From: an uncultured Gammaproteobacteria bacterium
Lineage (GTDB): Bacteria > Patescibacteriota > Patescibacteriia > Buchananbacterales > UBA6539
Reading direction: 5' to 3'
Length of the DNA: 64,000 nucleotides
NCBI GenBank assembly: GCA_964540635.1
Contig: CAZINP010000003.1
Span: forward strand, 43,892 to 107,891
The notes under the pieces are model-generated. The model had not been told where the DNA came from. It saw nothing but the letters and a program-made list of their open reading frames with translations, and did no database searches. Numbering within the stretch: position 1 is the first letter of the stretch; every line of letters starts with the position of its first letter. Made by a program: the position numbers and the translations under genes. Shown here one piece after another: positions 22,155-43,260 of this stretch.

Positions 22155-22336
22155 TCTACACAAAAATAACTTAAATTTTTTTAGTGCCGACAAAAGTCGG
22201 CACTATTTTTTTTGATTTATTTTTAATTTTTCATTGTAATAATAATTATATTTTGACGTTTGACATTGATATGATAAAATGTTATTGTATAGTTAACCTT
22301 AAAAATTAATTTTCACCGTAAGGAGGTGAGAATATT

Positions 22337-26100: not shown

Positions 26101-26329
26101 CCAGATAAATCACACCCGTTTTGCCGAATCAACCCAGTATGGTGCCAAGGTCGCATCGGGCGTTAAAGATATTTATCAGAATTGTTATATTCCCGGCAAA
26201 GGTCCGCAAGTGGAAAACTGTAATTATCCATATGGCACTAGTAATGGTTGTTGCGCGGTTACGGCTACAGGTGCCAATCCTCAACCGTTTTGCTGCAATG
26301 GTAATCCTCAAGACACACCTTGCAATTAG
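23186..26329 (+). CDS. giant secreted cysteine-rich surface protein 1 (1047 aa) with an N-terminal TrbC/VirB2-like pilin-type two-helix membrane module
   Basis: Signal peptide (cleavage near ALA-TDY), then two hydrophobic helices separated by SSAGNEEKITQAKN. About 1000 aa of extracellular Cys/Gly/Thr-rich sequence follows. The N-terminus is paralogous to that of the next gene. Confidence 0.8.
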   Translation: MYNFQKGFCSPLRNKRSRIALIVFSMAVLFLAGIAPALATDYGLSYGTYLGFGTQDLRVTIMNIVRIFLGFLGIIALLLVIYAGWLWMSSAGNEEKITQAKNILRNTLIGLAIIMSAFAIVSFIIVMLTGGLGGNGTIPDVNPPPSGCENCGYLGTGIIESVYPAPMSTDNDRDTAIIVTFKEEISPDSVINGVSASAVCGGNPNPCAGTLREISGEPVVKIFKRAETESAFIPTINVNVVTVDKKTYQFIPPVLGDSVSKNWYTVKLTNAISKASDGSSAFPGVNSYFSWDFEVGTKLDVLPPKITSVFPYPDNNVDDYTPVAGQKAQGSVVVVSQPKVSREPSATLSVIVGDTDIELNGVYNGTYEGTATYTVGPDRTTVGVVYSPTLTNGAASFPIDNMRITLGVGVNVVFQEDTFAAGDQFSISFVPNTEADVLQISNKIYRFVSGTPTGDQIQVGSNINNTAANIATKIQSDGQAPKVNATASGATVSLTADVAGSAGNYINVAGSGTWATITNFGGGANQTTSAECSGACDQPRNSVIRLDFSEGIMPSVASGKNTITQETGSPTGVGSGPSFNYVTVQADINNDGTFSSNEYISGTFTQSNQYKTVEFLSLQPCASETSVVTNSCGDPIYCLPIRPNADATRYRVTVKASSLKGCTNSNECLGLKYESGELTETCTTIPKDKQNPATTDRACGNSNGIFYPKAATAIDGIADLASNSFDGNGNGFSQGTLTQSLSWAFALHLPNVTQRCDLQSLAPTNPATTGQVGTNCTGDPAICIDGTCRDLGDDLIFDFWISSRIDSGSPVIIKVNPSVQGSGSSLLSPISSYFNKLLMSSTVKSGTGYKDGRCTCTADIDCADADQKCLPANGTVKYCVNVNNPQIYCAATNECKKTGTTQGFSPACETKEYITLVNPTTIGVGWWLSNIGQDIRMCLNESNKYKECTGNSDCNPGGVCSQADSYFDRNLIQINHTRFAESTQYGAKVASGVKDIYQNCYIPGKGPQVENCNYPYGTSNGCCAVTATGANPQPFCCNGNPQDTPCN

Positions 26330-26346: not shown

Positions 26347-29300
26347 ATGAAGCCTAAAACAAAAATAATCACCAAAAAAATTACTGTGCTGGCACTTTTT
26401 GCCATTGCCATTTTTGCGATTGCCCCCGTGGCTTTGGCTGCCGATTTTGGTTTGGGGTATGGGACGAATTTAGGGTTGGGTACTCAGGATTTGCGCGTGA
26501 CGATTATGAGAGTGGTTCAGGTAGCCTTAGGATTTTTAGGTATAATTGCCATCATATTGTTTATGTATGGCGGATGGCTTTATTTGTCTTCGGCCGGCAA
26601 TGAAGAAAAAATCAGCCGAGGCAAGCAAGTTTTAATTAATGCTGTTATTGGTTTGGTTATAATTTTTACTTCATTTGCCATTGTCAGTTTTATTATAAAT
26701 TTCTTGGGATCGGCAACCGGTTCCCAGCCGCCGCAGGGTTTTACATGTACGGCCAATCAATGTGTTTCTTGCGGTGTAAGGTGCAATGATACCGGCGATG
26801 GCTATGTTTCTACAAGTGATTGCTCAACCCAGGAATACTGTTCTGTCCCGCCAAACCCGGCCTGTCCGAAGCCAGATGATATTATTCCGACTATTTGCCG
26901 CATTGAGCCGGTTAGGGGAGTTGGTTTTGGTGGCGTACCTCAAGGTTACGTCGGTGATTTTGTAACAATTGAAGGTTGGTATTTAGGTATTTTTGAGTCG
27001 GGAGTCAGCCGGGTTAAATTTGATGAAACCGAGGCTTCAATTGCCACTTGTGATAACAATCCGATTTGGTATACCAACGCTAATCGCTATAGCATTATCA
27101 GGGCAATTGTCCCTTCAATTGAATTGGGTACGACAAATGTTTTAATTGAAACAAGCGCTTCTCTTACCAGCAATACAAAACCGTTTATAGTAATTGAAGG
27201 AAATCCCGGTCCCGGCTTGGCCTGCTTGATTCCGCCGAACGGAAAGAACAACGACCTTTTAACCAAAGCCGAAGGTGTTCGTTTTGGTGATGATCCGGAT
27301 ATTTTAGGTGGCTTATTCTTTAATGACAATCAAAAATCAACTTTTGTTTCTTGGTCGGATGAGATTATTAGTCAGCCAACAGTTCCGGCGAATGCGGTTT
27401 CCGGTCAGGTTTATGTTAAAGACGCTGACGGCATTCAAAGCAATGGCGTCTGGTTTACGGTTAGTTGTACCGAGAATAGCAGTTGTGCCAGTGGCTGTTG
27501 CAAGAGCTTTATGTGTCAGCCTGATTCGGCTTGCCAATCGGGCGTGGGCGAAAGTTGTGATAACGATATCAACACGACCAATTGTGAGCCCGGATCAAAT
27601 TGTGCCGATGGTTTAGTTTGTAACAGTAATAGTTGTCTTTGTGATTTACCCGGATATGATCAACCGTGTGATACAAATTTAGATTTGCCACTTTGCCAAG
27701 GTGGCAGTTGTGCGGCGGGTTATTATTGCCAAGAATCAACTTGTACCTGTCAGGAGATTCCAACTTACGGCGAGCCGATTATTTACGGCTTTACGCCAAC
27801 GAGCGGCGCAGTTGGGACTTATGTGACAATTTCCGGCGGTAATTTTGGTCCAAATAAAACTTCAGCGGCCGGTCATGTTTATTTTATTGAAGGTGCGAAT
27901 AAGGTTGAAGCCGATTATACATTAATTAAAGAATGCGCCGATACTTTTTGGCACAATACTCAAATCGTCGTTAAGGTGCCGGCCGGTTTAGTTAACGGCA
28001 ATCAATATATTATTGAGGTTGAAAATAGCGAAGGGAAATTTGATACTTCCGGCTTAAACCCCTCCGTCTTTACGGTTGATGAAAATTTAATTCGTCCGAA
28101 TATTTGTAAGATTACTCCAGACAACGGACCTATTTATCAAGATGTAGAAATCTACGGCGAAAATCTTAACCCGAGCGCTGCGCCAGTCAGCAGTGTCATA
28201 TTTTCGTCAAATGTTGTTCAGAGTAATTTCACTTTATCTACCAATGACATCTTTGCTTCTGTTCCGGCCGGGTCAGTTTCCGGTTTGGTAAAAGCTAAAA
28301 ACAGCAAAGACAATGAGAGTAATGGTTTGTATTTTCAGGTCGGTGCTTGCGTAGTTGGCGGTTGTCAGTCCGGCTATGAGTGCTGCCAGGGTGGCAGATA
28401 CAACTTAAGTTGTATGCCCGAAGGCGGTTGTTATGCGGCAGTCAGTAATTCGTCTTATGATTGGACTTTTACCACCGGCGCCAGACCGGGGAATTGTTCA
28501 AATGATTCAGGTATTTGTATTCCCAATAATGATATGTGTTCGGCCGGTTATACTTGCGATACTCAAACTTGTAATTGCACCCCAACCGGCACGTTTAATT
28601 GCAGTAATAAAGCTTATCCGGTTTGCGAGCCAAACAGTGATCTTTGTCCCGATAATCAGTTTTGCGGCGCAACTTGTACTTGTTTAGCTAAGATCCCATG
28701 CGATGGCAATGTCGCCACCCCGGCTTGTCAGCCAAGCGACGACATTTGCCGCAGTGTTGACTCAAGCCTTTCTTGTGACCCAGAGACTTGTTATTGTGAT
28801 ACCGGATTTAGCGCCACAAAGGCAGCTTATGATTGGACTTTTAATTCTTACACCGAAGGTCCGCAAGTGGTTGATGAATGTAATCGTACTCCCGAATGTG
28901 CCAAGGTTTGTGCCAACGACAGATCGATTACCTGTTCTCAAGACAGTGATTGTGGTGCTGACGGGCCGTGCATCAAAGCCTTTTCCAGTCCTTCGCCAAA
29001 GTATAATCGTGACGGTGAGGTTTATGCCAATTCTCAAATCAGCGTTAGTTTTGACCAAGAGATTCTACCAAGCACCGTTAATTCAAATACCATAAAATTG
29101 TATCGTTGCAATCAAGACTCCGGGTTTTTAAGCGCCAGTTGTTCGGTTATAACTGTTAGTAGTTATTTAGTTTTTGATTGGGATTACGGAATAATTGATG
29201 CTAATGGTGTAATCATCAACCCAGTCAACTCATTAGAAGCGGGTTATTGGTATAAAGCGGAAGTAACCGCCGGTGTCATCGGTCGCAACGGGTTTGCTGC

Positions 29301-32300
29301 CGCTCCTTATTCTTGGCTCTTCAAAATAAAAGCCGGAACAGGCAGTGTTGGCTGTGCGACTTGCCAACCGGGTTATGCTACATTATTTGCTCGATATGAC
29401 GGCAACTGCAGTGGAGTGGGTGATCCCGACTGTCAACCTTACCTTGGTCAGGCTTGGGATCAAGATCACGTTTGTGTCATGTTGAAACCTGAAACTTTAA
29501 CCTGGAATTGGAATTTGTTAAATGAAACCGATAAACGAGCTTCAATATTTAACAGAGCAACGTCGCAACCGGCTTATCCAAACGACGAAGATGCTTATCT
29601 TTCAAGTGTGAGCGGCCAGGGCTTTGATGTTATTGATGTTTATGCCAGAAAGGAAACTTTGACTAATCCGGTTAAGGTGGCTACGGAAATTAATGGTTTG
29701 CCGTCTCAAGCCTATCAGTATGGTGAAAATATTTGCGATTTAAGCGTTGATTTATCAACTCCGATTGTTGTTAAGCGCTGGCCGGATTGTAATGGCGCTT
29801 GTACAAACGCTTCTGTTGGGGCGGCTTTTTCCATCCCCATGAATTCAAGCTCAATTACCGCCAGCGGAGCGGTTGTGCTTTATGCTTGTGCGGATAATGC
29901 CAATTGTCGGCCCGGTTATGGTGTTTGCAGTGTTACCGGCAACTACTGTAATGCGGCCAAAGGAACCGGTTGTGGTACGGGTGAGACCTGCCAGGCCCTT
30001 GATTACGATCAAGTAAGTGTCCCGCTAAACTTTAACCAGCTAGGTGCGGTTGTTAATGGTTATGCGAATTCTTATTTGGCTGATTCGCCCTGTTTTGATA
30101 TAAACGCTGACGGAAAAACCGATTATTGTCTTTTACCAAACACCTATTATAGAGTTATTTTACGAAATACGATTGAAGCAACCAATGGTAAAAAATTAGG
30201 TAAATTAAATTATGACGATGCCCTATATAACGGTTTGAGTGAGCTAGGAATTAAAGATTCTTATTCTTGGGTTTTCAGAACTCAGGATAATATGTGCGCC
30301 CCCGGCCGAATTTCAGTTCAGCCGGAAGAAAGACATATGAGTATTTATGAGGTGCAAAAATACGCTTCTTATCCTTACACCTCGCCGGATAGCTGTGATG
30401 CCCAGGGCCAGCCGTTGATTGCCGCAAGTTTCGTCTGGGAATGGCAATCAAAATATTGCCAGATCGCCGATTTGTTTTCATCTTCATATGGTGGTTATTT
30501 AAATACTCACACCTTTTTTGCGGTGCCTCCCGGTTGCACTAAAGTGACCAGCCAGTACGCTACTTTACGCAGCGGTTGCGGTAATGGTGTTGTTGGCTTG
30601 GGTGAAGATTGTGATGATGGCAACATTTTCAATCAAGATGGTTGCAGTTCAACCTGTCTTAACGAAGGTGTTAGTACAATGCCGAATTATAATTTTTCAT
30701 TTGACGGCATTCCAACAATTTCGTCAAACACCAATGAATTTCCATTTGAAAGTACTTCATTTTCTTTGCTTAGAAATTATCCCCTAAATGGCACTGCCAG
30801 ATCGGGTTTTGGTTCAAGTCAAAATTTAGGTGTAAATAATAGTGGTGTTATTTATGCTCAATCAGACAATGGCCGATCCGGCCTAATGAGAGATAATTGG
30901 GTTAGTGCTGATCATTATTTTGTCAGTGCAAACATTAAACTTCCTCAGAATACTGAAAATATAAATGATGTTGGTTTAATTTTTGGCTATCTCAGTAATA
31001 ATAGCAATTATTTTGCTGCAATCTGGTCAAGCCTTGGTTATTCAGCCATGGCTGACTATCAGCAATTAAAGATAATTAAAGCCGCAAGTGGCCTGCCGCA
31101 AAGTGTTGCTAATACGCAAAAGATTCCGGCCGATCAAAATTGGCACGAAATTAAAGTTGAAGTCATTAATTATGATTTTTCAGCGGATATAAAATTATAT
31201 TTTGATGATAATTTGTATTTAACTTACAAATCAAATACTAGGGTTGTGGGTAATGCCGGTATTTATGCTTATGATACTGATGGTCAGGTTTTATTTGATA
31301 ATCTAAAAATTTACGGGGATGATTTGCCGATTTGCGGCAATGGCATTTTAGAGAAGGGCGAAGAGTGCGAAAAAGATCAAGCTGGAAATTTTGGACCTTA
31401 TTGCACCTTGGGTTGCTTAAATAGTGGAAACGCCGCTTCCGGTGCGGTTTGCGGCAATGGCGTGGTTGAGCCGGGCGAAGAATGCGACAATGGCAACGAG
31501 CCTAATAATAATGAGGCTGACGGTTGTACCAATACTTGTATTTTAAGTGGCTTTACTCTTTCAAATATGTGTGGCAACGGCATCGTTGATAAAGGAGAGG
31601 CTTGCGATAACGGTGACTTTACCAGATACACCTGCCTTAATAATCCAAGTCAGGTTTGTGATCCCAATGATGATACGGCCTGTGGTAATCAGAAAGCTCT
31701 TTGCACTAATCGGGCCAAGTCTGGCGATGGGTGCACCGGTTATTATCAAAGCGTCGCTTTTCCGGAGAATATTTCGGGGCACAGTTGCAGCACGATGACT
31801 GAAACTCAATGTAAAACTTTTTCGGAAACATCAAGTGATAATCACGCTAAGTATTGCTATTGGACTGGTACCGAGTGTCGCATTAGGCCTTGTATTTCAG
31901 AAACCAGCACGGCTCAAGGCAACGACCGCTATGACATTTCCATCTGCGGCAATGGATTGGTGGAGGCTGGTGAAGAGTGTGACTATGGTTCTCTTTGCCA
32001 AACGTCTTACGGCGGGGTGGCAAGATGCACTTCATTAAATGCTTCAACGGTTTGCGCTTCGGGTATTTGCGGCCAGGGGGTTTGTCAGGCAAAAACTTCA
32101 ACTGGATATATTACTAATCAATACGTTGCATGTACCGAGGAAAACGCCGGTGATCTTTGCTATTCCGGCTCTTGTGAGTTGCCGGCAAATTCTTATCTGC
32201 CAGGGTGTACTTCAAATTGTTTAAACGCCGGCTCTGTTTCTGATAATCGGTCACACCAAATCGCTCAAGGCTTAGCTGACGGTCAAACCGAGGTCCAAGC

Positions 32301-35300
32301 TTGGACAAGCGAATTTAAGCCCAGTAGCGGCGGTCCGATGGGAATTGGTAAATTATTTGTTGGCGCTTGGGGTCAGCCGGAAGATTTCTATGTCATTGAT
32401 CAATGGCCAAATTGTTTCACGGCCTGCTTAAACGCTGATATTGGCGCCCAATTCAGCCAATATGTTAATACCGCTTCGCTTACTACTTCAGATAATATCA
32501 AGCTTTATGAGTGCCGCACCGATTCGGGTTGCAATTTGGCTAATGCGACCAAAATATCCGGTTTAAGCGTTATCCCATTTACGATTAAGACCAATTCGGA
32601 TAATCGTATTGATGCGGTTCAACTTTTATTGCCAAATTCTTATAATCCGGTTAACCACGATAATAATCCGTCGACCGCCCCAATTCCGGCACTATTGCCT
32701 GATAGTTATTATCGCGTGGTAATAAGCAAAAATGTCAGGACCGATTCCAATCCGCCAAAGAATTTACAGTATTTAAACTTTAACGACCCAACCGTTGGCT
32801 CCGGTACGGAAAATGATTCATACTCATGGGTTTTCAAAACTCAAAACAAAAATAATTTCTGCGCCCTATCCAGTGTAAAGGTTTTGCCGCAAACCTGGCA
32901 GATGTTTACCGGTAACAAGAGACAATTATATTTCTCACGGCCGATAAGTAAGCCGGATGAATGTTCGGTTAATGGTCAACTTTTGAATCCTTTCTATTTT
33001 GATTGGCGCTGGGATGATGTAGAAATGTCTCAAGATAATGGCAACTTTATCAATGGTGCTGATATATTAATTGACACTTTGGATGAGTTTCTTAAAAAAG
33101 TTATAAATGGTGGAACTCTACCGACGACACCCCCAACCGCTGGCGGATACCTTAAGGACGGTTGTGGTAATGGGGTGGTTGAGTTTGGCGAAGATTGCGA
33201 CCCGGGTTTGCAGTCCATTGAGGGTTGTTCCAATACCTGTCAGCACGCCGGCAGTGGCGCCTGTAGCCCGACGGTAAGTACCAATTGTTGCGGCAATTCA
33301 ATTATTGAACCGGGCGAAGAATGTGAACCTTTTGTTAATGGCGGTTTTTGCACCAGCAATGGTTTGCTGTGTGATCCTTTTCTTGATCCAAACTCTTGTC
33401 CTGGGGGTACCTGTTTATATTTATGTGATAGTAGATGTAGGTTTGCCGGCAATACAAATACCCAAGCCAATTGCGGCGACGGCGTGATTTCACCTATCGA
33501 AATTTGCGACGGTAAACTCGGAGATGATAGCGACGGTTGTTCTGATTATTGCCAACCTTCAGGTGCTGTACCCGCAACCGGCTCAACCTGCGGCAATGGG
33601 ATTATTGAAAAAGGAGAAGAATGCGATGGTGGGGAACTTGCTTCGGGCAATATACCTTTAAGTTTTGATGGTAATAATTGTTCGGGAATCAAAAATAAAA
33701 CCGGCGTAAGCGGCGGTTGCACCAATTATTCAACCGAAACTCAATGCCAGTCTTGGAAGGGTTGTTATTGGAGTGGTAATGAATGTAAACATCGGCCTTG
33801 TATTATTGAGAATCGAAATGTCGCCGTCTGTCGGAATAGTGAAAATTTATCCGTTGATTTCAAACAAAATTATAATGCCTGTAAACCGGGTTATACGTCT
33901 ATTTTTCTAAATACTTTGACCGGAACCTCATTAACCAATCGACCGGTTTGCGGCAATGGCGTGGTTGAGCCGGGCGAAGAATGCGATTTGGGCGGCTGGT
34001 GTATTGATGAAGAAACCAATAATTTTAAGACTTGTACAACTTACAATGCAGTCGGTTGTCGCAACAATATCTGCTTAACTTACAGTTACTATTGTTCGGT
34101 TGATGGTTTGCCCATAGATGGTGCTACCACACTTGGCGCCTGCAGTGCCGAAGGTATTTGCGATAGCAATAAAAATTGTGTTGTTGCCGGTCCCGGTGGT
34201 TCAGAAATAGAATATCCCAAGTCAACATGCACGACAATTGGCGCGGCATGCTCTATTTCCGGGACGGGATATGTCAATGGCTGCTCAAGTAATTGTGTGT
34301 ATAATGGTTCGCGTTATGATGATGGCATTAACGATCCGTATCAAATTGTTCAGTCGGTTGGTGTTTTTTCTAACACTGTTTTGACGGAGGTAAATGAAGA
34401 AATTCGCGCTTGGCACGCTTTGCAACCTGATAGAGTCGGGGTGGGCGAATTAACGATTTTGGCCAGCGCCAACGTACCGTTTACGGTTGTTGGCCATCAG
34501 CCAAAAGCAAGGGGTCTTGATCCAACTAATCAGTGCCGTAACGTCGGCATCTGGGCAATTTTGTCCAGACCGCTTGATGCAACATCTGTTACCGCTGAAA
34601 ATTTATATTTGGGCAAGCAAGGTGTTGAGGATAATCTTATCAAGAGCTATTCGGTTTTACCGGTTTCCGGGTCCTGCAATGAAAATCACCGCTGTGTTTA
34701 TCCTGGTGCGGAAGATAGTCCACTGGAAACCAGTTATTGTTATGTAAATTCCGACTGTGTCGGCAGTAAGATTGTAATAAATGAAATTGAAGGTGTTTAT
34801 TTGGATGGTAATTCTTCTTATGTATTACGTTTTAAACAAAGTTTGAAGGCTCAAGACGGCTCAAATTTGCAGGAGTTAAACTATTCAGACCAAGATCTGA
34901 AAAATTATACAATTTGGGGTTTTGATACAAGCGCTGATTTCTGTTCGTGCAATTATGTTGGTGTCAATATATTAAACACCACCGGGCAGGCTTTTACCAC
35001 CAAGGATTATTTCACTTGTGCCGGTGATAATTGCGGGTCAAATACTTATAAAGTTTTATTTGATGACGACTACAAGCCAAAAGCAATGTGTCGTTTGTCC
35101 GGGCAGGAAGCTAAATTTGCTTGTGACACTTCAAAATCTGCTGTTGATCAATGTGGTACCGGTGGCACCTGCAGTCTTTATAGCGCTATGGCCGGCAATC
35201 AGCATTTGTACAATGCCAACTGTTATGATACCGAATATTCGGAAGGCACAGATATTCCGGTTGGTTTGGGAACTGCTTATGATTTTGCTGAAATTGATCC

Positions 35301-38300
35301 GCAAAAATTAATTTATTTAACAGGAGTTGACGAAAAGACCGTTGACTGTACAAATGTTAATGGTCAGTGTTTGGTTACGCCGGGTGATAATCAGGTTCCG
35401 GCCGGAAAAAATGGTGATTCGCAAGTTATGGTTTCGGGCAAACAATATATGGATAATAACAATCAGATTTGTACCCCAACAGAAGCCAATGCTCAAACTT
35501 GCCTATTGCGTCGGTCAGCTCACCAAACCATTGATATCACCAATTTTATTTGTGATAATCCTTGGCCGGCTCTTGGATCTTTCCCGTATACAGACAGTAA
35601 TGCCAGCGGCAACTCGCCGACAAACAGCGTTACGCCATATTATAATTTCACCATGTATTATTGCCGCGATTACGGCAAAGAAGGTTTTGATGACGATTTG
35701 CCGTCGTTAAATATCAATGGGCCGGTTTTTGGCAGCCGCGGTGATGTCCTAAAAGAATTTTTATTCCCGGTTGGAACCGATGTGGTTATTAATGCCCCCG
35801 GTTCACCAAAGAGGGGTGTTGATTTCTTGAGCAATGACTGCACTCAGGCCGGTATGGGTGGTATCGTGCCAAGCAATACCGATGCTTATCGGTGCAATGT
35901 TAATTCCCATTTCCGTTATAAATTTACGGGCGTGGAGAAGGGTTACTATAAATTAGTCTACCAAACTTATAATTACGGTTCGGGCAGCATGAATTCTCTG
36001 GATTTATATGGTTTGAAGATGTGTGATAAAAATAAAAATGGTTATATAAATACCGGCGGGGCAACCGGGGAAACAACTCCTTGCAACACTCAGGCTGATT
36101 GTGCCAGCTTGGGAACGGGCATTGCCTGCTTGCCGGTAACTCAAGAAATTGATGTATATCACGTTAATGTTAACGATACAGTTCCGATTGCAAGAATATC
36201 AGCTATACCGCGCGCATACGACAATATGCAGTCAAATGAAGTGCCGGTGTTATTAGAGGCGGGTGATCACACTTTTAGATTTAGATGGATTAATGATTGG
36301 AATGTAACAGTAGATGGTAAATATTATGATTCTAATTTGATTATCAATAAGGTTTCATTGATTAAAGTTGAAAATGAAGCAACTTCAGATGCAATCGGCT
36401 TAAGAATTTTACCAAATACGCTGCATCTTTCCGCCTCAACTTGGTATAATACCGGCCTTTGCGGCGCCCAAGTTGGCAGTGGTGTAGAGAATATTTGTTA
36501 TAGCAACAATGATTGCGCCGGCATTAATTTGTTTAAGAACGCAAACTTTGAAGATACAACAAAGCCTTGGGTTTATGAATATAACACGCTTTCGCCAAAT
36601 GTTTACCATAATCAGCCCGGTGAAATTATTGCCGGTGGCAGAAGTGGCAAAGCCGATAAACTTGCTGGTCAAAGCACGGTAACAACCTGGGGTTATCAAA
36701 TAAAATATCCTTCCCCGTTTGATTTGCCGGCAGGAAACTACGTCTATTCGGCTTGGATAAAATCACAAGACGGTGGAAAGGTTGGGATCACGGTTCAAGA
36801 AACAACCGGCTGGAGCCATTTATGCAGCAATAAAGATTGCACGATTAGGGGTGATTCAGTCGTCTGTGCCAATACTGATAACGAGTGGCATAAAGTTACT
36901 TGTACTTTTAGTTTGGCAAAAAAGACACAGGTTCAAATGGCCGTTAGAGCCGACGATGAGGCTAAAACCTTTTTGGTTGATGACGTCTCTCTCACGACGG
37001 GTTGCAATTTTAATTTGCCAAGCCGCGGCACAGCCCAACCTTTGACTTTTGACGGATACAACGCCGCTTCAGACGGCAGAAGCTTATACGTTAATGCCAC
37101 TAATTTTAACGGCACCAATTTGTTTTCAAACATTTTCTTATTATCGTATACTCAAAACGCCAGCGAAAGTACGAAGGAAATCTTCAGGCGTTTATCTGAT
37201 CAAACCAATACTTTGGGCGGCTTGAGCTTTAATGCCAATATGACCAGCCATCGCCTTTGCAGTGGCGTTGGTTTGTACGAGAAGACAAGCTTTATTTGTA
37301 ATCAAGTCGGCGTTGCCACCGATTGCCGTGGATATAACAGTCAATCGCTTTGCGAAAGCGAAGCAAACTTAAAGAATGGCTGTTACTGGAGTGAAACCGA
37401 TAAAATTTGCAGCGGCCGCATGTGTTTGCCGATTTATTGTCAAAGTGATAAAGACTGCCCGAATTTAATTTGCGATAATCAAAAGGGCGGAGCAGTCAGG
37501 GATAATTTGCGTTTCGGCAATTTGCGCGATATGCAGCTGACTTTGGAAAGAAGTTATAAATCAAACGGCAGCTATCCTAAGTTATCAGCCGGTACCTATA
37601 TAGCGTCCACTACTTTTGCGGTTTGGCCGTCTTGGCAGGCAACCTTGGGCAGTGGAATCGGCAGCACCTTGCCTTCTGATCCGTTAAATTATTTTACCGG
37701 TTGTGTGGCCAGTTATTGCGACACCAATGAAAACGGTACACTTGAAACCGCTGAAACCACTTCTTGCTTGCCCTATAATGTTACTTCCTGCAATAACAAG
37801 CCTCAAAATTGTTTGCCGACCGAAGTTGATCCGGATAGAGTAAAAACCTGCTGGGACGAAAAGGCTAAAGAATTTTCTTGCCCGCAAGAAATGTACACTT
37901 ATGCTTATCGTTCAAGTGAAGGCGGCAAGGAGTATGAACTTTATACCAATTTTGAATTTATAACTTCCGGCTGGGTGAGTAACGCCACCGGCTATCAATT
38001 GCCTTTTTATGGCACGCAAGAATGCAAGAAATTAAATTTTGAAATACATCAAACCAGAGATAGGGTTTCAACCCCAATTGAAGATTCCAGCTGTGCCATT
38101 AAGCATTGCTGGGGAGCCTCAGGTATTTTAACCGGCTTAAGGGACGGTTGGACCTATGGTCAGAACAACACAAATGATTGCGAAGGTACCAGGCCGGCGT
38201 GTCCAAGCGGTTATCGCTGTACCGGTGATGCTGATTCGGACGGAGTTTGTGATGAAGGCTTGAGTGATAATTGCGCACCTCTTTTGATGTGTTCGGCTAA

Positions 38301-41300
38301 CGCCAAGGATTGCTATAACCCAGATCAGCGCGACAGCAACGGTGATGGTCGCGGCGATGTTTGCGATCAGACATGTTCGGGCGATAAGGATGGCGATACG
38401 ATTTGTGATAACATTGATAATTGTCCGACAGTCAGAAACACCGATCAACTCGATCACGATGGCGACACAATTGGTGATGCCTGCGATCCGTGTACGGATA
38501 TGGATAGTGATGGTTATTGGGATTATAAGACAGCTGCCAATGACGAAAAAGTTTGCCCTCAAGACAATTGTTCCCCGTTCTATAACGGTTATTGCCAGAG
38601 CAGCGCCGGAGATCGAAACGGTCAACGTTGTCATTCAACCTCGGATTGCGTTGCCGGGTTTAATAATACATGTTTTATCCCATTTACCTCTTCCTTTGGT
38701 GTCTCTAATGATCGTCCAAAATATTGCATTAAAACGGTTGACGGTAAAGAGCTTTTTGCTTCAAAGGAAGTTTGTAGTACTGCTTGTCCCACCGGCTATA
38801 CTTGCAAGCAAGCCTTGGACAGTTCAACCAGGTATTTTAATCCGAACCAAGAAGATTATGATAACAGCGGTCGCGGCTATATTTGCAATGATTGTTTGGA
38901 TTATGATCAGGATGGTTTAGGTGATTGGACCTTTTATGCCAAATCAAGCGATGTCGCAACGGCCGTAAATTTAACCTTTGATCAGAAAGAACATTTTGCC
39001 GGTTGCCGAGCCGATCAAAGAGCATTTGTTGGTTTTGGGACACCGTCACCGGCGACAGATTTAGATAATTGTCCGGGTGGGCCTTATTCAAAGAAGTGCT
39101 ATGATAATTTCGGCGTGGAAACCCTCTGCTCAAATCCGCCGACAAATTGGAGTGATGAAAATAATAATAGTTATGTTAACAGCCAAGCCGATATTGATTT
39201 GAATCATTATGGTGATATCTGTGATCCTTCGGGCGACGGCCGCCTTGACCCGGGCGAGGCCTGTGATTGCGGTGATTTAGCCATTTCTCAAGATGAACAA
39301 AATCCGTTCCAATGTACAACTTTAAATGATGTAGAATGTGCGCATTCAGAAAGATATGGTGATTGCTGCAAGTATTGCGCCACTGATTTGGCCACCGGGC
39401 AGCACTACATTGCTCAATCTTGCGGTCCAAGGCTGGGAGACGGCATTGTTAATGGTAGTGAAGAGTGCGATTGCGGCGAGAACCAAATAATTCGCGACAG
39501 CATTACCGATCCGCCTAATATTGACGCTACCGCCACTTCCGGTATTTCGTGTTTGACTTTTGATACGGCCAGAACCCCCAGAACCATTTTTAATGGAATT
39601 GATTGTGGACCGATAACTCAAAACGGGGTGTTTCAGTGGAGCATGGACGGCTATTCCTGTCAGTGGTGCGATATGGGTAGAATCGAAGAAACTACCGGCC
39701 CATATTTTGGTGATGGGATAGTTGACACGGACGTTTCCGGGGGCTTGGAACAGTGCGATTGCGGTGATGCGGCGCCGATTTCTACAGATACCAACAACTC
39801 TTTCTGTGTCTATGGCACATACAATTATTATGGTGAAACCAGGACCGGCAATTATTGGACTTTAACCGAAACTGCTGTTTTATTTAATGAAACAGAGACG
39901 ATTACCAGAAATATTCCTTGTATCTCAAAATGTTCGTCGTTTAACGGCCAACCCTGCACACCACAGGAAAGATGCGATGGTGTTTGCGGGTATTGCCGGG
40001 CTAATGATACTAACACCGGTAGCATAGAAGACTATTCCGGTCATCTGTGCCTGCCGTGTTCATCAGTAGAATGCAATTCAATTTGCATTAACTTACCAAA
40101 TGACGGTTGTTGCCGTGATGGAGAAACAGCTGATAATGAATATGGCTGTCCGTTTAAGGTGGGTGATCAAATTTTAATAAAAACACGAGAAAATAATACT
40201 GCTTGCGGATCAAACGAAGATAAGCCGTGGTGTCACCCTTCAATTTTCTTGAAAGCTAAGACGCGTTTGGCAACCGATCCGGGGATTTTTGGCGACGGTA
40301 CCTCGGCTTCACCATTTTATTTCTTTAAGGTTTTACCTGGAGATGAAGATGACTGTCGAGTGAACAATAATCGAATTCCTGAATTGGGCAGTGACGTAAA
40401 AACCGGGGATTGTATTAAATTTGAAATTACTTCGATTAATGGTAAAAACAAGGTTTCGATTGGTTCGGACGGCTGGATAACGGTTGGGGATAATTTCGCC
40501 AGCTGGGTTATTAACATTGTTGACGGTATGCCGCTGAAGGTTGGTAGTATAATCTCATTGAAACAGGCTGGTCAGAGTGATGATAAATTTTGGTCAACCA
40601 GGTGGAAAAATGTTGTTACGCTTTTTGGCGAGGATACTCCTGTGGGCACGGCAGATAAGGATCAGGACTGGGAAAAATTTAAAATTTGCAATCGTGCAAA
40701 TATTTGTTCAAACCAGGAGCTTATTCAAGAAACGTGTACGCCGCCCGCCACCGGTGAAGTGGATTCGTGTGCAAATAAATATACCGGCTGCCACCGTTGC
40801 GTAGCAATATCTGAAAACTTAAATATTTGTAGTGAGTACAATTATACTTGGAATCCGGACTTAGTTATAACACCAATTTTGCTGTGCTCTGGTGCTAATC
40901 GTGACTATTGTTGTAATGAGTCTTTGTGTAACGGCAATCCTAATGATTCAGCTAAATATGATATTGATTGTGACGGCGTAAAAATAAATGAGCCAATCAG
41001 TTTGAATGCCGTAGTAGAAAGTAATGGTGTTGATGGTTTTGAATTTTTAACCGGTGGAACAAACTCTTCTGATTATGTTCACACGAAAGGAACTGGTGAA
41101 AACCTTACAAATTATAGGTTTGTGGCAGCTATTTCTCGTGCCTGCAGATCCGATCGGGATACTGTCATAAGAATGCCCGGGGCAGGTAATGCCGTTACTG
41201 GTGGTGGGGACGATAATATTCGTGACGGGGACTGCATTTCGCTTGAAGCTAATGCCGGCGCCTTGGTTATGAACGATGAAAGCTTTTGGAATAATAAAAA

Positions 41301-43260
41301 ATGGTTACGAAGCGAAAAAGACGGTATGAATGGAGATGTAATTACCAGAGAATTTAGTGTGTATAATTATACAGCCAGAGAAAACGGCATAGATGATGCA
41401 AACATTTCTTATGGAGATATTATTGGTTTTTATGAAATTCGCAGCCCTTATGGATATGGCGCCTGGTGGCAAAATTTTTATCCGGACGAGGGGGGTAAAA
41501 TTGGTAATAATCCGACGGAAGGCTGGTGGAGCACTCCAATGAATGACTGGTCAAGAAAATTTAAAGTTTGTAAAGCTGATGGCGTCTGCGCACCTATATG
41601 TGATGTTGTTAACAGTAAAGTTTCCGGTTGCCCTGAGCCTCAAGGCTGCTATATTTGTCAAGATCCAGGCGCTTGGTCTTCTATTTGTTTGCCAAACCCG
41701 ACTTATACTTACGGTTCTTACACTTGTGGCGTGAGAGAGGACAATTCTTTATGCGCCGGCGTAATTGGTGAGGATAATTGTTGCGTCTCCGGGGAGTCAT
41801 GGTTGCAAGATCGCGCCTGTCCTTTAACTGACGGTTCACAGATCTCAATGAAGGATGATCATTCTTATTCTGCTGGTTTGCGAGTATTTTTAGCTGCGGG
41901 CAATAATAATGGGGCTGATTCCATCTCTGGCTGTGGTGGTCCTGGTGAGGAGTGGGATTGGCGCGCCATTAGATTAAGCGTAACAGATGATGCAAAGTTT
42001 ACAGTTGAGAAGTGTGATAAATATAAGGCAGGCTGCACAGCTGTTAATCCAAAGGGTCCAATTCGTTATGGTGAAATAGTAAGAATCAAGAGTAATAGAA
42101 ATTATTGCCCGGCAGTTGAGGCAGAGACAGGAGTATTTTCTGGGGAAGAGGTTGATGTGGAGTTTGGTGATGGCGTTGCCGCATACTTTAAGCTTTGCAG
42201 TGCGGTGGTTGGCGGAAATTGTGCGCAGAGAGATGATGATATTAATAGTTTAAATTCTTATCCTTATATAAGAAAAGGCGATAAGGTTTACCTGGAAAGG
42301 GCGTCTTGGAATCAAGCAAACAATTGGTGGGCTGGAAATGGAAAATATATAGATTTAAATGAACACAGTGAAGATATAAATGATACTCAGGGCGACAAGG
42401 ATAATAAAAATCCAGTATTATTAAGTTCTGGAAGCGGCGAAGGTTTATTTGTTTGCGACTCAACATTAAATCAATCAAACTGTTATTGCAGGGAATATCC
42501 CGGTACGATAGTTTGTGGGGCAGAATGCAAAGCACCACAGACAAAACCGGCCGATGATTATTGTAATACTTATGTTCCTAATTCTGCCAGACCCGAATGT
42601 GACGGTTGGCATGCTGTCAGTACCGGTAAGCCGGAGTGTGGTCCCTGCAGTGAGTCAAACTGCCAATTGTATTGCGCTAATGCTGACAACGACGGTTGTT
42701 GTAAGGGTAGTGAAACTATCAGCAATGAGTATGCTTGCCCGATCTTATCGGGTAGTGATGTAATTTTATATTCGGTTGGTGGCGGTACTTATATTGATAG
42801 GTATAACGATTGGTATACCTTAGATGCTGATTCCGCTGTGGTTACTAGAATTATGGAAACTACCGGCGGTCGAGACCAAAACTTTACGGTTCATAATTTG
42901 GCAATTTTTGATGGCGCATTTTTTGAGATGGTCGGAGACAATGAGGATAGCCGTATTTGTAATAGAAAATCACTCCATTGGTGGTTGGCGTGGACATCAT
43001 GTGATAATAGTCAGTTTAAACTTCATTTGGTATCTGATTCAAGGCCTGGTATCGCCGGGATTCAACCGGGGTCTATTATTGGCTTGGAAACCGGGACTGA
43101 TACTCCAACTAATCGCAAGTGTTATAGGGTTAGGACAAGCGCCAACTCTAGCAGTTGGGCCGGGTATTTTGATGGCGTTGATTGTCCAACATGGAACGCA
43201 AGCACCGATAATACTTTCTTATTTATCATTCAGGCCAGTAATGGCAATCAAGCTCCTTAA
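26347..43260 (+). CDS. giant secreted cysteine-rich multidomain surface protein 2 (5637 aa, 16.9 kb) with the same pilin-type N-terminal module
   Basis: Uninterrupted 16.9-kb ORF in AT-rich DNA. Domains read from the translation: pilin-like N-terminus; 3 IPT/TIG-like domains; about 13 CGNGxxExGEECD Cys-rich repeats; LamG/ConA-like and CBM-like beta-sandwich domains; Ig-like modules ending YSWVFKT; thrombospondin type 3 repeats (DNCPTVRNTDQLDHDGDTIGDACD); a triplicated C-terminal module. Confidence 0.85.
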   Translation: MKPKTKIITKKITVLALFAIAIFAIAPVALAADFGLGYGTNLGLGTQDLRVTIMRVVQVALGFLGIIAIILFMYGGWLYLSSAGNEEKISRGKQVLINAVIGLVIIFTSFAIVSFIINFLGSATGSQPPQGFTCTANQCVSCGVRCNDTGDGYVSTSDCSTQEYCSVPPNPACPKPDDIIPTICRIEPVRGVGFGGVPQGYVGDFVTIEGWYLGIFESGVSRVKFDETEASIATCDNNPIWYTNANRYSIIRAIVPSIELGTTNVLIETSASLTSNTKPFIVIEGNPGPGLACLIPPNGKNNDLLTKAEGVRFGDDPDILGGLFFNDNQKSTFVSWSDEIISQPTVPANAVSGQVYVKDADGIQSNGVWFTVSCTENSSCASGCCKSFMCQPDSACQSGVGESCDNDINTTNCEPGSNCADGLVCNSNSCLCDLPGYDQPCDTNLDLPLCQGGSCAAGYYCQESTCTCQEIPTYGEPIIYGFTPTSGAVGTYVTISGGNFGPNKTSAAGHVYFIEGANKVEADYTLIKECADTFWHNTQIVVKVPAGLVNGNQYIIEVENSEGKFDTSGLNPSVFTVDENLIRPNICKITPDNGPIYQDVEIYGENLNPSAAPVSSVIFSSNVVQSNFTLSTNDIFASVPAGSVSGLVKAKNSKDNESNGLYFQVGACVVGGCQSGYECCQGGRYNLSCMPEGGCYAAVSNSSYDWTFTTGARPGNCSNDSGICIPNNDMCSAGYTCDTQTCNCTPTGTFNCSNKAYPVCEPNSDLCPDNQFCGATCTCLAKIPCDGNVATPACQPSDDICRSVDSSLSCDPETCYCDTGFSATKAAYDWTFNSYTEGPQVVDECNRTPECAKVCANDRSITCSQDSDCGADGPCIKAFSSPSPKYNRDGEVYANSQISVSFDQEILPSTVNSNTIKLYRCNQDSGFLSASCSVITVSSYLVFDWDYGIIDANGVIINPVNSLEAGYWYKAEVTAGVIGRNGFAAAPYSWLFKIKAGTGSVGCATCQPGYATLFARYDGNCSGVGDPDCQPYLGQAWDQDHVCVMLKPETLTWNWNLLNETDKRASIFNRATSQPAYPNDEDAYLSSVSGQGFDVIDVYARKETLTNPVKVATEINGLPSQAYQYGENICDLSVDLSTPIVVKRWPDCNGACTNASVGAAFSIPMNSSSITASGAVVLYACADNANCRPGYGVCSVTGNYCNAAKGTGCGTGETCQALDYDQVSVPLNFNQLGAVVNGYANSYLADSPCFDINADGKTDYCLLPNTYYRVILRNTIEATNGKKLGKLNYDDALYNGLSELGIKDSYSWVFRTQDNMCAPGRISVQPEERHMSIYEVQKYASYPYTSPDSCDAQGQPLIAASFVWEWQSKYCQIADLFSSSYGGYLNTHTFFAVPPGCTKVTSQYATLRSGCGNGVVGLGEDCDDGNIFNQDGCSSTCLNEGVSTMPNYNFSFDGIPTISSNTNEFPFESTSFSLLRNYPLNGTARSGFGSSQNLGVNNSGVIYAQSDNGRSGLMRDNWVSADHYFVSANIKLPQNTENINDVGLIFGYLSNNSNYFAAIWSSLGYSAMADYQQLKIIKAASGLPQSVANTQKIPADQNWHEIKVEVINYDFSADIKLYFDDNLYLTYKSNTRVVGNAGIYAYDTDGQVLFDNLKIYGDDLPICGNGILEKGEECEKDQAGNFGPYCTLGCLNSGNAASGAVCGNGVVEPGEECDNGNEPNNNEADGCTNTCILSGFTLSNMCGNGIVDKGEACDNGDFTRYTCLNNPSQVCDPNDDTACGNQKALCTNRAKSGDGCTGYYQSVAFPENISGHSCSTMTETQCKTFSETSSDNHAKYCYWTGTECRIRPCISETSTAQGNDRYDISICGNGLVEAGEECDYGSLCQTSYGGVARCTSLNASTVCASGICGQGVCQAKTSTGYITNQYVACTEENAGDLCYSGSCELPANSYLPGCTSNCLNAGSVSDNRSHQIAQGLADGQTEVQAWTSEFKPSSGGPMGIGKLFVGAWGQPEDFYVIDQWPNCFTACLNADIGAQFSQYVNTASLTTSDNIKLYECRTDSGCNLANATKISGLSVIPFTIKTNSDNRIDAVQLLLPNSYNPVNHDNNPSTAPIPALLPDSYYRVVISKNVRTDSNPPKNLQYLNFNDPTVGSGTENDSYSWVFKTQNKNNFCALSSVKVLPQTWQMFTGNKRQLYFSRPISKPDECSVNGQLLNPFYFDWRWDDVEMSQDNGNFINGADILIDTLDEFLKKVINGGTLPTTPPTAGGYLKDGCGNGVVEFGEDCDPGLQSIEGCSNTCQHAGSGACSPTVSTNCCGNSIIEPGEECEPFVNGGFCTSNGLLCDPFLDPNSCPGGTCLYLCDSRCRFAGNTNTQANCGDGVISPIEICDGKLGDDSDGCSDYCQPSGAVPATGSTCGNGIIEKGEECDGGELASGNIPLSFDGNNCSGIKNKTGVSGGCTNYSTETQCQSWKGCYWSGNECKHRPCIIENRNVAVCRNSENLSVDFKQNYNACKPGYTSIFLNTLTGTSLTNRPVCGNGVVEPGEECDLGGWCIDEETNNFKTCTTYNAVGCRNNICLTYSYYCSVDGLPIDGATTLGACSAEGICDSNKNCVVAGPGGSEIEYPKSTCTTIGAACSISGTGYVNGCSSNCVYNGSRYDDGINDPYQIVQSVGVFSNTVLTEVNEEIRAWHALQPDRVGVGELTILASANVPFTVVGHQPKARGLDPTNQCRNVGIWAILSRPLDATSVTAENLYLGKQGVEDNLIKSYSVLPVSGSCNENHRCVYPGAEDSPLETSYCYVNSDCVGSKIVINEIEGVYLDGNSSYVLRFKQSLKAQDGSNLQELNYSDQDLKNYTIWGFDTSADFCSCNYVGVNILNTTGQAFTTKDYFTCAGDNCGSNTYKVLFDDDYKPKAMCRLSGQEAKFACDTSKSAVDQCGTGGTCSLYSAMAGNQHLYNANCYDTEYSEGTDIPVGLGTAYDFAEIDPQKLIYLTGVDEKTVDCTNVNGQCLVTPGDNQVPAGKNGDSQVMVSGKQYMDNNNQICTPTEANAQTCLLRRSAHQTIDITNFICDNPWPALGSFPYTDSNASGNSPTNSVTPYYNFTMYYCRDYGKEGFDDDLPSLNINGPVFGSRGDVLKEFLFPVGTDVVINAPGSPKRGVDFLSNDCTQAGMGGIVPSNTDAYRCNVNSHFRYKFTGVEKGYYKLVYQTYNYGSGSMNSLDLYGLKMCDKNKNGYINTGGATGETTPCNTQADCASLGTGIACLPVTQEIDVYHVNVNDTVPIARISAIPRAYDNMQSNEVPVLLEAGDHTFRFRWINDWNVTVDGKYYDSNLIINKVSLIKVENEATSDAIGLRILPNTLHLSASTWYNTGLCGAQVGSGVENICYSNNDCAGINLFKNANFEDTTKPWVYEYNTLSPNVYHNQPGEIIAGGRSGKADKLAGQSTVTTWGYQIKYPSPFDLPAGNYVYSAWIKSQDGGKVGITVQETTGWSHLCSNKDCTIRGDSVVCANTDNEWHKVTCTFSLAKKTQVQMAVRADDEAKTFLVDDVSLTTGCNFNLPSRGTAQPLTFDGYNAASDGRSLYVNATNFNGTNLFSNIFLLSYTQNASESTKEIFRRLSDQTNTLGGLSFNANMTSHRLCSGVGLYEKTSFICNQVGVATDCRGYNSQSLCESEANLKNGCYWSETDKICSGRMCLPIYCQSDKDCPNLICDNQKGGAVRDNLRFGNLRDMQLTLERSYKSNGSYPKLSAGTYIASTTFAVWPSWQATLGSGIGSTLPSDPLNYFTGCVASYCDTNENGTLETAETTSCLPYNVTSCNNKPQNCLPTEVDPDRVKTCWDEKAKEFSCPQEMYTYAYRSSEGGKEYELYTNFEFITSGWVSNATGYQLPFYGTQECKKLNFEIHQTRDRVSTPIEDSSCAIKHCWGASGILTGLRDGWTYGQNNTNDCEGTRPACPSGYRCTGDADSDGVCDEGLSDNCAPLLMCSANAKDCYNPDQRDSNGDGRGDVCDQTCSGDKDGDTICDNIDNCPTVRNTDQLDHDGDTIGDACDPCTDMDSDGYWDYKTAANDEKVCPQDNCSPFYNGYCQSSAGDRNGQRCHSTSDCVAGFNNTCFIPFTSSFGVSNDRPKYCIKTVDGKELFASKEVCSTACPTGYTCKQALDSSTRYFNPNQEDYDNSGRGYICNDCLDYDQDGLGDWTFYAKSSDVATAVNLTFDQKEHFAGCRADQRAFVGFGTPSPATDLDNCPGGPYSKKCYDNFGVETLCSNPPTNWSDENNNSYVNSQADIDLNHYGDICDPSGDGRLDPGEACDCGDLAISQDEQNPFQCTTLNDVECAHSERYGDCCKYCATDLATGQHYIAQSCGPRLGDGIVNGSEECDCGENQIIRDSITDPPNIDATATSGISCLTFDTARTPRTIFNGIDCGPITQNGVFQWSMDGYSCQWCDMGRIEETTGPYFGDGIVDTDVSGGLEQCDCGDAAPISTDTNNSFCVYGTYNYYGETRTGNYWTLTETAVLFNETETITRNIPCISKCSSFNGQPCTPQERCDGVCGYCRANDTNTGSIEDYSGHLCLPCSSVECNSICINLPNDGCCRDGETADNEYGCPFKVGDQILIKTRENNTACGSNEDKPWCHPSIFLKAKTRLATDPGIFGDGTSASPFYFFKVLPGDEDDCRVNNNRIPELGSDVKTGDCIKFEITSINGKNKVSIGSDGWITVGDNFASWVINIVDGMPLKVGSIISLKQAGQSDDKFWSTRWKNVVTLFGEDTPVGTADKDQDWEKFKICNRANICSNQELIQETCTPPATGEVDSCANKYTGCHRCVAISENLNICSEYNYTWNPDLVITPILLCSGANRDYCCNESLCNGNPNDSAKYDIDCDGVKINEPISLNAVVESNGVDGFEFLTGGTNSSDYVHTKGTGENLTNYRFVAAISRACRSDRDTVIRMPGAGNAVTGGGDDNIRDGDCISLEANAGALVMNDESFWNNKKWLRSEKDGMNGDVITREFSVYNYTARENGIDDANISYGDIIGFYEIRSPYGYGAWWQNFYPDEGGKIGNNPTEGWWSTPMNDWSRKFKVCKADGVCAPICDVVNSKVSGCPEPQGCYICQDPGAWSSICLPNPTYTYGSYTCGVREDNSLCAGVIGEDNCCVSGESWLQDRACPLTDGSQISMKDDHSYSAGLRVFLAAGNNNGADSISGCGGPGEEWDWRAIRLSVTDDAKFTVEKCDKYKAGCTAVNPKGPIRYGEIVRIKSNRNYCPAVEAETGVFSGEEVDVEFGDGVAAYFKLCSAVVGGNCAQRDDDINSLNSYPYIRKGDKVYLERASWNQANNWWAGNGKYIDLNEHSEDINDTQGDKDNKNPVLLSSGSGEGLFVCDSTLNQSNCYCREYPGTIVCGAECKAPQTKPADDYCNTYVPNSARPECDGWHAVSTGKPECGPCSESNCQLYCANADNDGCCKGSETISNEYACPILSGSDVILYSVGGGTYIDRYNDWYTLDADSAVVTRIMETTGGRDQNFTVHNLAIFDGAFFEMVGDNEDSRICNRKSLHWWLAWTSCDNSQFKLHLVSDSRPGIAGIQPGSIIGLETGTDTPTNRKCYRVRTSANSSSWAGYFDGVDCPTWNASTDNTFLFIIQASNGNQAP

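Follow-up and report, generated by a model that had tools for sequence, protein, structure and literature searches.

A VirB2-type pilin module at the N-terminus of a giant cysteine-rich protein, a putative surface adhesin of Patescibacteria

The giant gene and its N-terminal pilin module

The stretch of DNA analysed here, which we call the window, comprises 64,000 nucleotides of contig CAZINP010000003.1 (assembly GCA_964540635.1, positions 43,892 to 107,891), and the element of interest is a giant open reading frame (ORF) at 26347..43260 on the + strand, as are all the protein modules described below. It has 5,637 codons, starts with ATG and runs without interruption. The product, identical to an NCBI record (P0001) located on a 168,360-bp contig, contains 334 cysteines (5.9%) and is rich in glycine, serine, asparagine, aspartate and threonine. 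From the letters of the DNA alone, an original prediction had described this protein as a repertoire of adhesin domains similar to those of the eukaryotic extracellular matrix; the feature that is the most informative, a complete pilin at the N-terminus, is absent from that description.

The first 125 amino acids (aa) of the protein (26347..26721) correspond to a complete pilin module of the VirB2 type, found in type IV secretion systems (T4SS), as judged by the PF18895 model, the hydropathy profile and the end-to-end alignment with pilins. The module consists of a signal peptide ending in VALA/AD, a first transmembrane helix at aa ~55-78, a short charged loop and a second transmembrane helix at aa ~97-120. 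PF18895 (T4SS_pilin) matched aa 49-116 with 31.5-32.5 bits, above its cut-off of 26.6 bits, and weaker matches were obtained with the models TrbC/VirB2 (E=0.048) and NF045849 (Mycoplasma ICE pilin-like; 36 bits, under its cut-off of 40). According to the hydropathy profile, the hydrophobic segments of the giant protein are restricted to aa 5-38, 49-84 and 92-124; after aa 124 there is neither a hydrophobic segment nor a C-terminal sorting motif, and the protein ends in ...FIIQASNGNQAP. All 334 cysteines are located beyond the pilin anchor.

More than 100 proteins were matched by residues 1-135, the large majority being stand-alone pilins of ~110-150 aa, and their named sources are almost always Patescibacteria, mostly labelled 'Patescibacteria group' or Candidatus Buchananbacteria. 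The anchor and these labels support the assignment of the window, by sequence, to the Patescibacteria. Aligned with the closest stand-alone pilins of this group (119-128 aa), residues 1-125 are 48-53% identical from end to end; signal peptide, two transmembrane helices and a GNEEK loop are common to both, and the stand-alone pilins end at most ~10 residues from the start of the giant's ectodomain. The pilin is only the N-terminal 2% of a 5,637-aa protein, far from the small size (~100-150 aa) that characterizes the VirB2 class. Read in this way, the giant protein consists of a complete VirB2-type pilin followed by a C-terminal extension of ~5,500 residues. In the literature that was searched, such a fusion has not been described, because in the published survey of T4SS in Patescibacteria (PMC12102498) VirB2 is handled as a protein of small size and no adhesins are reported. 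With respect to the large cysteine-rich proteins known from Candidate Phyla Radiation (CPR) bacteria, what is new is the fusion to a pilin.

Using residues 638-5637 as the query, four other giants were found that are collinear with P0001 and 32-44% identical to it across thousands of residues: P0002 (4,806 aa), P0003/P0019 (6,860 aa), P0004 (6,853 aa) and P0005 (2,877 aa), the last being the front half of a split orthologue whose ORFs have 2,877 and 2,890 aa. The pilin anchor is present in every giant orthologue with a known N-terminus. P0004 carries the NCBI label 'MopE-related protein [Patescibacteria group bacterium]'; we did not adopt it as a classification, since none of the NCBIfam models of this type matched P0001, even at E up to 1. 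Shorter relatives of 2.7-3.5 thousand aa share the anchor, Big_5 and the module found at aa 3561-3877 of the giant, and most of them have TIG or DUF4215 too. A scan for the locus with a four-sequence alignment in the GTDB species representatives, a set to which the genome of the window does not belong, returned relatives from a Candidatus Buchananbacteria metagenome-assembled genome (MAG), a Patescibacteria MAG and one MAG labelled Gammaproteobacteria, the hit in the last being the contig of P0002. The contig that carries P0002 (L003, CAZHUO010000012.1) is titled 'uncultured Gammaproteobacteria bacterium' despite its Patescibacteria-type pilin anchor, and is probably mis-binned or mislabelled. 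At L002, the locus of P0005, a frameshift at 18560-18660, inside a unit of the cysteine-rich CGNG repeat, splits the gene, by sequencing error or by real disruption.

As an independent check of the gene we used the short-read Logan assembly of run SRR8925758, from a strain ~99% identical to the window. Two of its contigs align to window positions 10826-31474 and 33957-54031, covering 85% of the giant ORF, which is open in both, with neither a stop nor a frameshift; interruption upon re-sequencing, the outcome by which the original prediction was to be refuted, was not seen in the part covered. Among 4,809 comparable codons, 127 synonymous and 43 non-synonymous differences separate the two strains, and the ratio of non-synonymous to synonymous rates is ~0.1 by a crude site count; from this synonymous excess, purifying selection follows. 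The two contigs terminate exactly at two units of the CGNG repeat, 31445-31487 and 33944-33986, which enclose a segment of 2.5 kb; such a break is explained by the 43 nucleotides of these units being 100% identical in DNA. The giant gene is genuine, intact and under purifying selection, since it is open in the independent assembly and the order of its segments is maintained in its orthologues. That it might be a chimera mis-joined at the internal repeats, or a decaying pseudogene, is hardly credible: the identical units at which the assembly breaks, and the frameshift that splits one orthologue, would fit such an origin, but both flanks of the 2.5-kb segment are independently confirmed, the order of this segment, for which the two contigs give no coverage, is collinear with P0003, P0004 and P0005, one segment between two repeat copies leaves a single possible path, and the synonymous excess indicates selection to maintain the protein. 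Identical repeat units also lead us to expect that the giant genes of this family will mostly be fragmented in short-read MAGs.

The mismatches between the two strains are patchy within the giant gene, with 32 and 38 in the bins 34000-35000 and 37000-38000 and 0-4 in the other 1-kb bins, which suggests recombination tracts or the consensus of a mosaic population.

Modules of the ectodomain

Three stretches of the IPT/TIG type, as had been proposed, follow the pilin, and they differ in the strength of the match to TIG (PF01833; cut-off 20.9 bits). Copy 2 (aa 477-572; 27775..28062) reaches 33.8 bits, copy 3 (aa 584-656; 28096..28314) remains slightly below the cut-off with 20.2 bits, and copy 1 (aa ~199-280; 26941..27186) is an IPT/TIG-like stretch with 16.2 bits (E=0.011); the combined score is 36.4 bits. 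In this region, self-BLAST also pairs aa 323-420 with aa 618-718. The Ig-like modules ending in YSWVF(K/R)T were likewise recovered, as a Big_5 family. Copy 1 (aa 890-992; 29014..29322) matches PF13205 with 38.6 bits against 23.6, and the other three are tied to the family by internal similarity only: copies 2 (aa 1141-1320; 29767..30306; ending in YSWVFRT; Pfam Big_5 E=0.19) and 3 (aa 2016-2175; 32392..32871; ending in YSWVFKT) by self-BLAST at E of 4e-11 and 1e-9, and the degenerate copy 4 (aa ~2720-2875; 34504..34971), which has no Pfam match, by the pairing of aa 1262-1325 with aa 2819-2874 (E=0.005).

Further along the protein, the predicted CBM4/9-like domain (aa 3394-3535; 36526..36951) was found in its place with a marginal score, 27.8 bits for CBM_4_9 (PF02018) against 25.9, the match spanning 130 of the 136 profile positions. 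The region of thrombospondin type 3 (TSP3) calcium-binding repeats (aa ~3930-4210; 38134..38976), also placed correctly beforehand, is recognised by TSP_3 (PF02412) at aa ~3995-4034, again marginally: 26.3-26.4 bits against a cut-off of 25 when segments of 640 aa are scanned, and only 24.6 bits, below the cut-off, in a piece of 2,037 aa. The region contains three strict and two loose calcium motifs of the DxDxDGxxD type, and an internal duplication was detected by self-BLAST (aa 3951-4016 with aa 4146-4190).

The cysteine-rich CGNGxxExGEECD repeat is well supported by score, as TIGR02232, the Myxococcus cysteine-rich repeat, matched in 5+4 stretches with 52.6 and 43.2 bits (cut-off 20.8) and DUF4215 with 43.5 bits (cut-off 27). 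A hidden Markov model (HMM) built from the protein's own copies found ten strong units (E of 1e-12 to 1e-17) starting at aa 1410, 1662, 1701, 1741, 1866, 2272, 2315, 2376, 2414 and 2534. The first one stands alone (aa 1410-1444; 30574..30678; E=1.9e-15 with the own HMM), the next four constitute a cluster at 31330..32055, also seen as the DNA unit family D1, and the last five a second cluster at 33160..34059. Three degenerate units ending in ...EECDCG (aa 4296, 4364 and 4468; 39232..39798) were recovered with E of 9e-5, 0.002 and 0.5, and self-BLAST links the first of them to the strong ones (aa 2536-2571 with aa 4296-4331). Thus all 13 positions given in the original prediction hold a unit. 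The repeat is also visible in the DNA, as 11 copies of a 43-nucleotide unit, and it makes up less than 10% of the protein; other short cysteine-rich modules, the 'Cys-knot' segments of the original prediction, do exist but were without a match to any Pfam family. Altogether, annotation with curated models, the check that had been advised, recovered TIG, Big_5, the Myxococcus repeat, CBM_4_9 and TSP_3.

Between the first CGNG unit and the first cluster lies a putative lectin-type module of the ConA-like kind (LamG, DUF1080 or TSP_C-like; aa ~1450-1660; 30694..31326), for which the giant protein itself has no Pfam match. The orthologous segments gave Laminin_G_3 at E=0.0019, Laminin_G_2 at E=0.018 and, in one orthologue, TSP_C at E=0.063, and the sole match among PDB sequences, non-significant at E=0.38, was the lectin-like C-terminal domain of COMP/thrombospondin-5. 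A profile of three sequences (A3) found one protein, P0021, with an hhalign probability of 97%; P0021 is itself below the thresholds for 3keto-disac_hyd (26.3 versus 26.8) and Laminin_G_3 (24.8 versus 27.6). The A3 search did not return its own source orthologues, and therefore the recall of the tool is limited for long proteins. From these matches, the module probably belongs to the ConA-like superfamily, and nothing finer can be assigned; the LamG/ConA-like lectin of the original prediction has support at that superfamily level only, and below threshold.

Recognised families cover ~35-40% of the residues, by a tally of the mapped modules, and ~60% remain without a match. Neither this proportion nor the orphan modules of the C-terminus had been remarked upon in the original prediction. 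One block without a known fold (aa 2880-3392; 34984..36522) is conserved in the orthologues at 31-37% identity and has no Pfam or PDB match. Another module of the same condition (aa 3561-3877; 37027..37977) is conserved throughout the family, in the giant orthologues and in the shorter relatives P0006-P0010 and P0013-P0015, and it also lacks Pfam and PDB sequence matches. An AlphaFold2 model of aa 3545-3900, computed from 12 members of the family, reached a confidence (pLDDT) of 50, with a long helix at aa ~3709-3740 and no Foldseek match in the PDB at E<=0.001; pilin entries among the Foldseek noise were not counted as evidence. At 37470-37570, the motif RD..R..DLRD.Q..LE.Y...G.YP resembles the C-terminal half of helix 1 of type IV pilins and pseudopilins. 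That aa ~3700-3880, where DPLN and Y.Y are also present, could be a head of this type was left unproven: no Pfam or PDB match was found, and in a comparison by hhalign with a GspG-type sequence the expected helix was aligned with a probability of only 6.7%.

The last ~1,070 residues consist of four orphan modules (aa 4568-4814, 4815-5100, 5101-5430 and 5431-5637; 40048..43257), defined by self-BLAST and 24-26% identical to one another. Each has a cysteine-rich head and then three sub-repeats with a GD-x-I-x-L-type motif; on self-alignment of a ten-module profile by hhalign, sub-repeat 1 aligned with sub-repeats 2 and 3 (P=2.7e-4 and 4.5e-4). An exhaustive HMMER search against 1.84 billion cluster representatives found these modules in the giant itself and, as the one full-length relative, in P0020 only, the latter 38% identical and apparently a fragment of another orthologue; L002 shows a weak match of 24-26%. 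Neither Pfam nor PDB sequences gave a lead for them, and profile searches of PDB sequences with four regions (A3, A4, A7 and A8) returned nothing significant. The threefold repeat (P ~3e-4) led us to consider beta-trefoils, for which neither Pfam nor the PDB gave support; the motif is just as compatible with SH3-like or OB-like barrels. AlphaFold2 of the first C-terminal module, with the four internal modules as the alignment, was unusable (pLDDT 32), so that the suggestion to model individual segments yielded no usable fold in either of the two predictions.

The orthologues vary by gain and loss of modules. P0002 is without the ConA-like module at the position of the giant's and has a Laminin_G_3-like segment in place of part of block 2880-3392, and VWA domains are present in P0002 and P0003 only.

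Proposed function and known systems

The protein carries a Sec-type signal, a pilin hairpin, no further membrane segment and module types that bind calcium or carbohydrate; those of the ectodomain (TIG, Big_5, CBM_4_9, TSP_3, TIGR02232 and ConA-like) are typical of adhesins and lectins. We consider it probable, rather than assured, that it is a giant cell-surface fibre, exported by Sec and anchored in the membrane, which acts as a multi-lectin adhesin and attaches the cell to a host or a surface. 'Adhesin' seems the most reasonable functional reading of these module types, and in this part the original prediction stood. After export of the protein through the Sec pathway, residues 1-125, i.e. 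the signal peptide and the two-helix pilin hairpin, would fix it in the cytoplasmic membrane, such that the remaining ~5,500 residues would extend outside the cell as a string of ~45-50 modules. Disulphide bonds among the 334 cysteines and the calcium-binding TSP3 repeats would stiffen the string. Lectin-type modules (CBM_4_9 and ConA-like) would be displayed along it, with TIG and Big_5 Ig-like modules as spacers and the four lineage-specific modules at the distal end, and its most likely task would be to reach a host cell or the surface of a particle and bind glycans or proteins there, in support of an attached lifestyle. Assuming 3-4 nm per module, the contour length of the fibre may be 150-200 nm, about as much as these bacteria are wide. 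In 2016, a role in attachment was proposed for large extracellular cysteine-rich proteins of CPR bacteria that weakly resemble the Myxococcus repeat (PMC4736985), and the cultivated Saccharibacterium Ca. Southlakia epibionticum requires adhesins and VirB2-like pilins for its epibiotic growth (PMC10633639, PMC12857230); a membrane-anchored adhesin would agree with both.

Several points weigh against this reading. As ~60% of the protein is family-less and both structure predictions failed, activities other than binding are possible, and CBM and ConA-like modules occur also in proteins that degrade glycans or capture nutrients. No disulphide-forming enzyme was found among the scanned genes of the window. 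Finally, the pilin module is the best-conserved part between orthologues, with ~50% identity versus 32-44% for the remainder, and such strong conservation suggests a role beyond anchoring.

This last point leads to the main rival of the membrane anchor, namely that the N-terminal module is a functional pilin that joins the stand-alone pilins in a T4SS pilus, either as a minor subunit or at the tip, and that the ectodomain is displayed there instead of on the cell membrane, which we take as unlikely. In F-pilus structures both termini of the pilin are on the pilus exterior, and hence a C-terminal extension is sterically conceivable. The anchor is complete and its 48-53% identity to stand-alone pilins is high compared with that among paralogous pilins in CPR arrays, which averages only ~25% (PMC12102498); two pilin-anchored genes stand in tandem, like the pilin arrays reported; and the same survey found no PrgB-like adhesin in Patescibacteria, a gap that this protein would fill. 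However, no VirB4, VirB6, other T4SS gene or stand-alone pilin was found among the scanned genes of the 64-kb window, and an appendage of ~600 kDa on a helically packed pilin is without precedent. A broader form of the idea, in which giants fused to VirB2 pilins are the missing adhesin of the essential T4SS apparatus of Patescibacteria and their pilin co-polymerises with stand-alone pilins, is a doubtful speculation at present. If true, a lectin fibre of ~150-200 nm on or beside the pilus would capture the host, the lineage-specific terminal modules would set the host range, and the fusion to a conjugative pilin would represent a previously undescribed way to anchor or display a surface protein.

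Less probable still is that the protein is not mainly an adhesin but a surface scaffold or coat, or a protein that captures or processes glycans and gathers polysaccharide or nutrients with its lectin modules, with catalytic or pore-forming activities perhaps hidden in the unannotated blocks. CBM_4_9 and ConA-like or DUF1080-like modules are indeed frequent in glycoside hydrolases and sugar-processing proteins, most of the protein is of unknown fold, and the giant TSP3-bearing proteins of Omnitrophota have been linked to the degradation of surface polymers (10.1101/2023.11.21.568195); but scans of the entire protein, with E up to 1-5 allowed, revealed no catalytic family, and Ig-like spacers together with calcium repeats and cysteine-rich repeats are the architecture of a fibre.

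Of the eukaryotic framing little remains, and a thrombospondin- or laminin-like matrix set acquired by horizontal transfer is highly improbable. The TSP_3 match, the COMP match of the ConA-like module and the TSP_C match in one orthologue could be read in its favour, but they are all at or below threshold. The TSP3 and ConA-like parts lie ~2,300 residues apart, the latter upstream, so that the thrombospondin signature of type 3 repeats followed contiguously by the lectin-like C-terminal domain is absent; profile scans of the protein found no EGF, TSP1, laminin or collagen modules; the neighbouring genes carry the bacterial TSP3_bac type; and the relatives listed, with their named sources, are all bacterial or metagenomic. 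Likeness to the extracellular matrix is superficial because TIG, Big_5, CBM_4_9, TSP3, ConA-like modules and the Myxococcus repeat are common in bacterial surface proteins. The TSP_3 match is at threshold and the ConA-like module shows a strand motif like that of COMP, but the two parts stand in reversed order and without EGF; given such marginal matches, we regard the similarity to thrombospondin/COMP as a resemblance and not as membership.

Among bacterial systems, the anchor relates the protein to the VirB2-like pilins of Patescibacteria (PF18895), including the essential arrays of Ca. Southlakia epibionticum, with which it shares the full alignment of aa 1-125 and the tandem arrangement of pilin-anchored genes; the pilins stand alone at 119-128 aa, whereas the giant adds ~5,500 residues and has no T4SS machinery among the scanned genes of the window. 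The cysteine-rich proteins of Ca. Peribacter riflensis (PMC4736985), compared by description only, are also large CPR proteins that have a signal peptide and ~7% cysteine, weakly resemble the Myxococcus repeat, vary between strains and were proposed to act in attachment, all of which we count as shared traits; they differ in size (1.2-3.9 thousand aa), belong to another CPR phylum and have no pilin anchor described. Giant adhesins such as SiiE, secreted by type I systems (T1SS/RTX), or, of the Gram-positive type, the 7,651-aa Mobiluncus adhesin (PMC6272769, PMC10619420) are modular fibres too, with Ig-like spacers and calcium- and ligand-binding modules. The giant protein has no RTX family match or T1SS signal and, at its C-terminus, no LPXTG or hydrophobic stretch as expected of sortase substrates; instead, it has a Sec signal peptide at the N-terminus and the pilin hairpin. 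Its modules are of many kinds, unlike the tens of nearly identical repeats of those adhesins, and its cysteine content is very high. With the Myxococcus cysteine-rich acidic repeat proteins (TIGR02232/DUF4215) it shares units well above cut-off, but these repeats are a minor part of it, and no MopE-type NCBIfam match was obtained. The dockerin-type giants of Omnitrophota (10.1101/2023.11.21.568195) are likewise predicted to be membrane-anchored and extracellular, bear TSP3 repeats and come from ultrasmall host-dependent bacteria; they have at least 30,000 aa, are dominated by dockerin/EF-hand modules, belong to another phylum and adjoin a secretion locus similar to type II secretion or type IV pili, and no dockerin was found in the giant protein. 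From these comparisons we infer a bacterial surface adhesin of the large cysteine-rich CPR type, set apart by its pilin anchor and orphan modules.

Host recognition and attachment by ultrasmall Patescibacteria are poorly understood, and in the sole genetically tractable lineage type IV pili, T4SS with VirB2-like pilins and unnamed adhesins are essential. The locus offers a concrete and conserved candidate that physically joins a VirB2-type pilin to a giant lectin-bearing ectodomain and defines a family with a syntenic locus. Annotation pipelines label such pilin-anchored giants poorly; the family can be readily surveyed, and its modules expressed and tested.

Neighbouring genes and other features of the window

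Immediately upstream of the giant gene, with a spacer of 17 nucleotides, a gene of 1,047 aa (23186..26329, + strand) also encodes a pilin anchor (PF18895, 34.1 bits) and Big_5. The two anchors, the only pilin modules in the window, are 58% identical over 113 aa, and the remaining sequences are unrelated. Downstream, after 26 nucleotides, there is a single-pass membrane protein of 248 aa with TSP3_bac repeats (43287..44033, + strand), and the profile scan revealed a second one, of 321 aa, with a TSP3_bac repeat (44210..45175, + strand). At the syntenic locus L002 the order is GDPD, signal peptidase, hisS, yqeY, pilin-anchored gene, giant and 248-aa TSP3_bac gene; the last keeps its position there, which makes its product a candidate partner for the giant. 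In the strain of SRR8925758, the upstream 1,047-aa gene and the signal peptidase differ by a few residues.

After hisS, the region 22182-22293 contains a strong terminator-like hairpin (10-bp stem and T8) and then three overlapping promoter-like sites. In the short spacers that separate the 1,047-aa, giant and 248-aa genes no terminator was found; the three may constitute one long transcription unit starting at ~22.3 kb. Other genes of the window are of the housekeeping type, parAB, topA, dprA, hisS, ftsAZ and ribonucleotide reductase among them. The genes parA and parB are located at 3076-4737, and the cumulative GC skew rises monotonically over all 64 kb. The window probably belongs to the leading strand close to the origin of replication, and ~22 kb separate the giant gene from parAB; T4SS genes are origin-proximal in some CPR genomes according to a T4SS survey.

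Two minor observations concern other genes. A protein of 608 aa encoded at 54287-56113 combines an alpha-alpha toroid similar to prenyltransferases and terpene cyclases with DUF4430. The tRNA-Val gene at 19333-19409 overlaps the listed TTG start of the GDPD ORF (19348-20175), whose true start is placed further downstream because a related contig calls a product of 242 aa.

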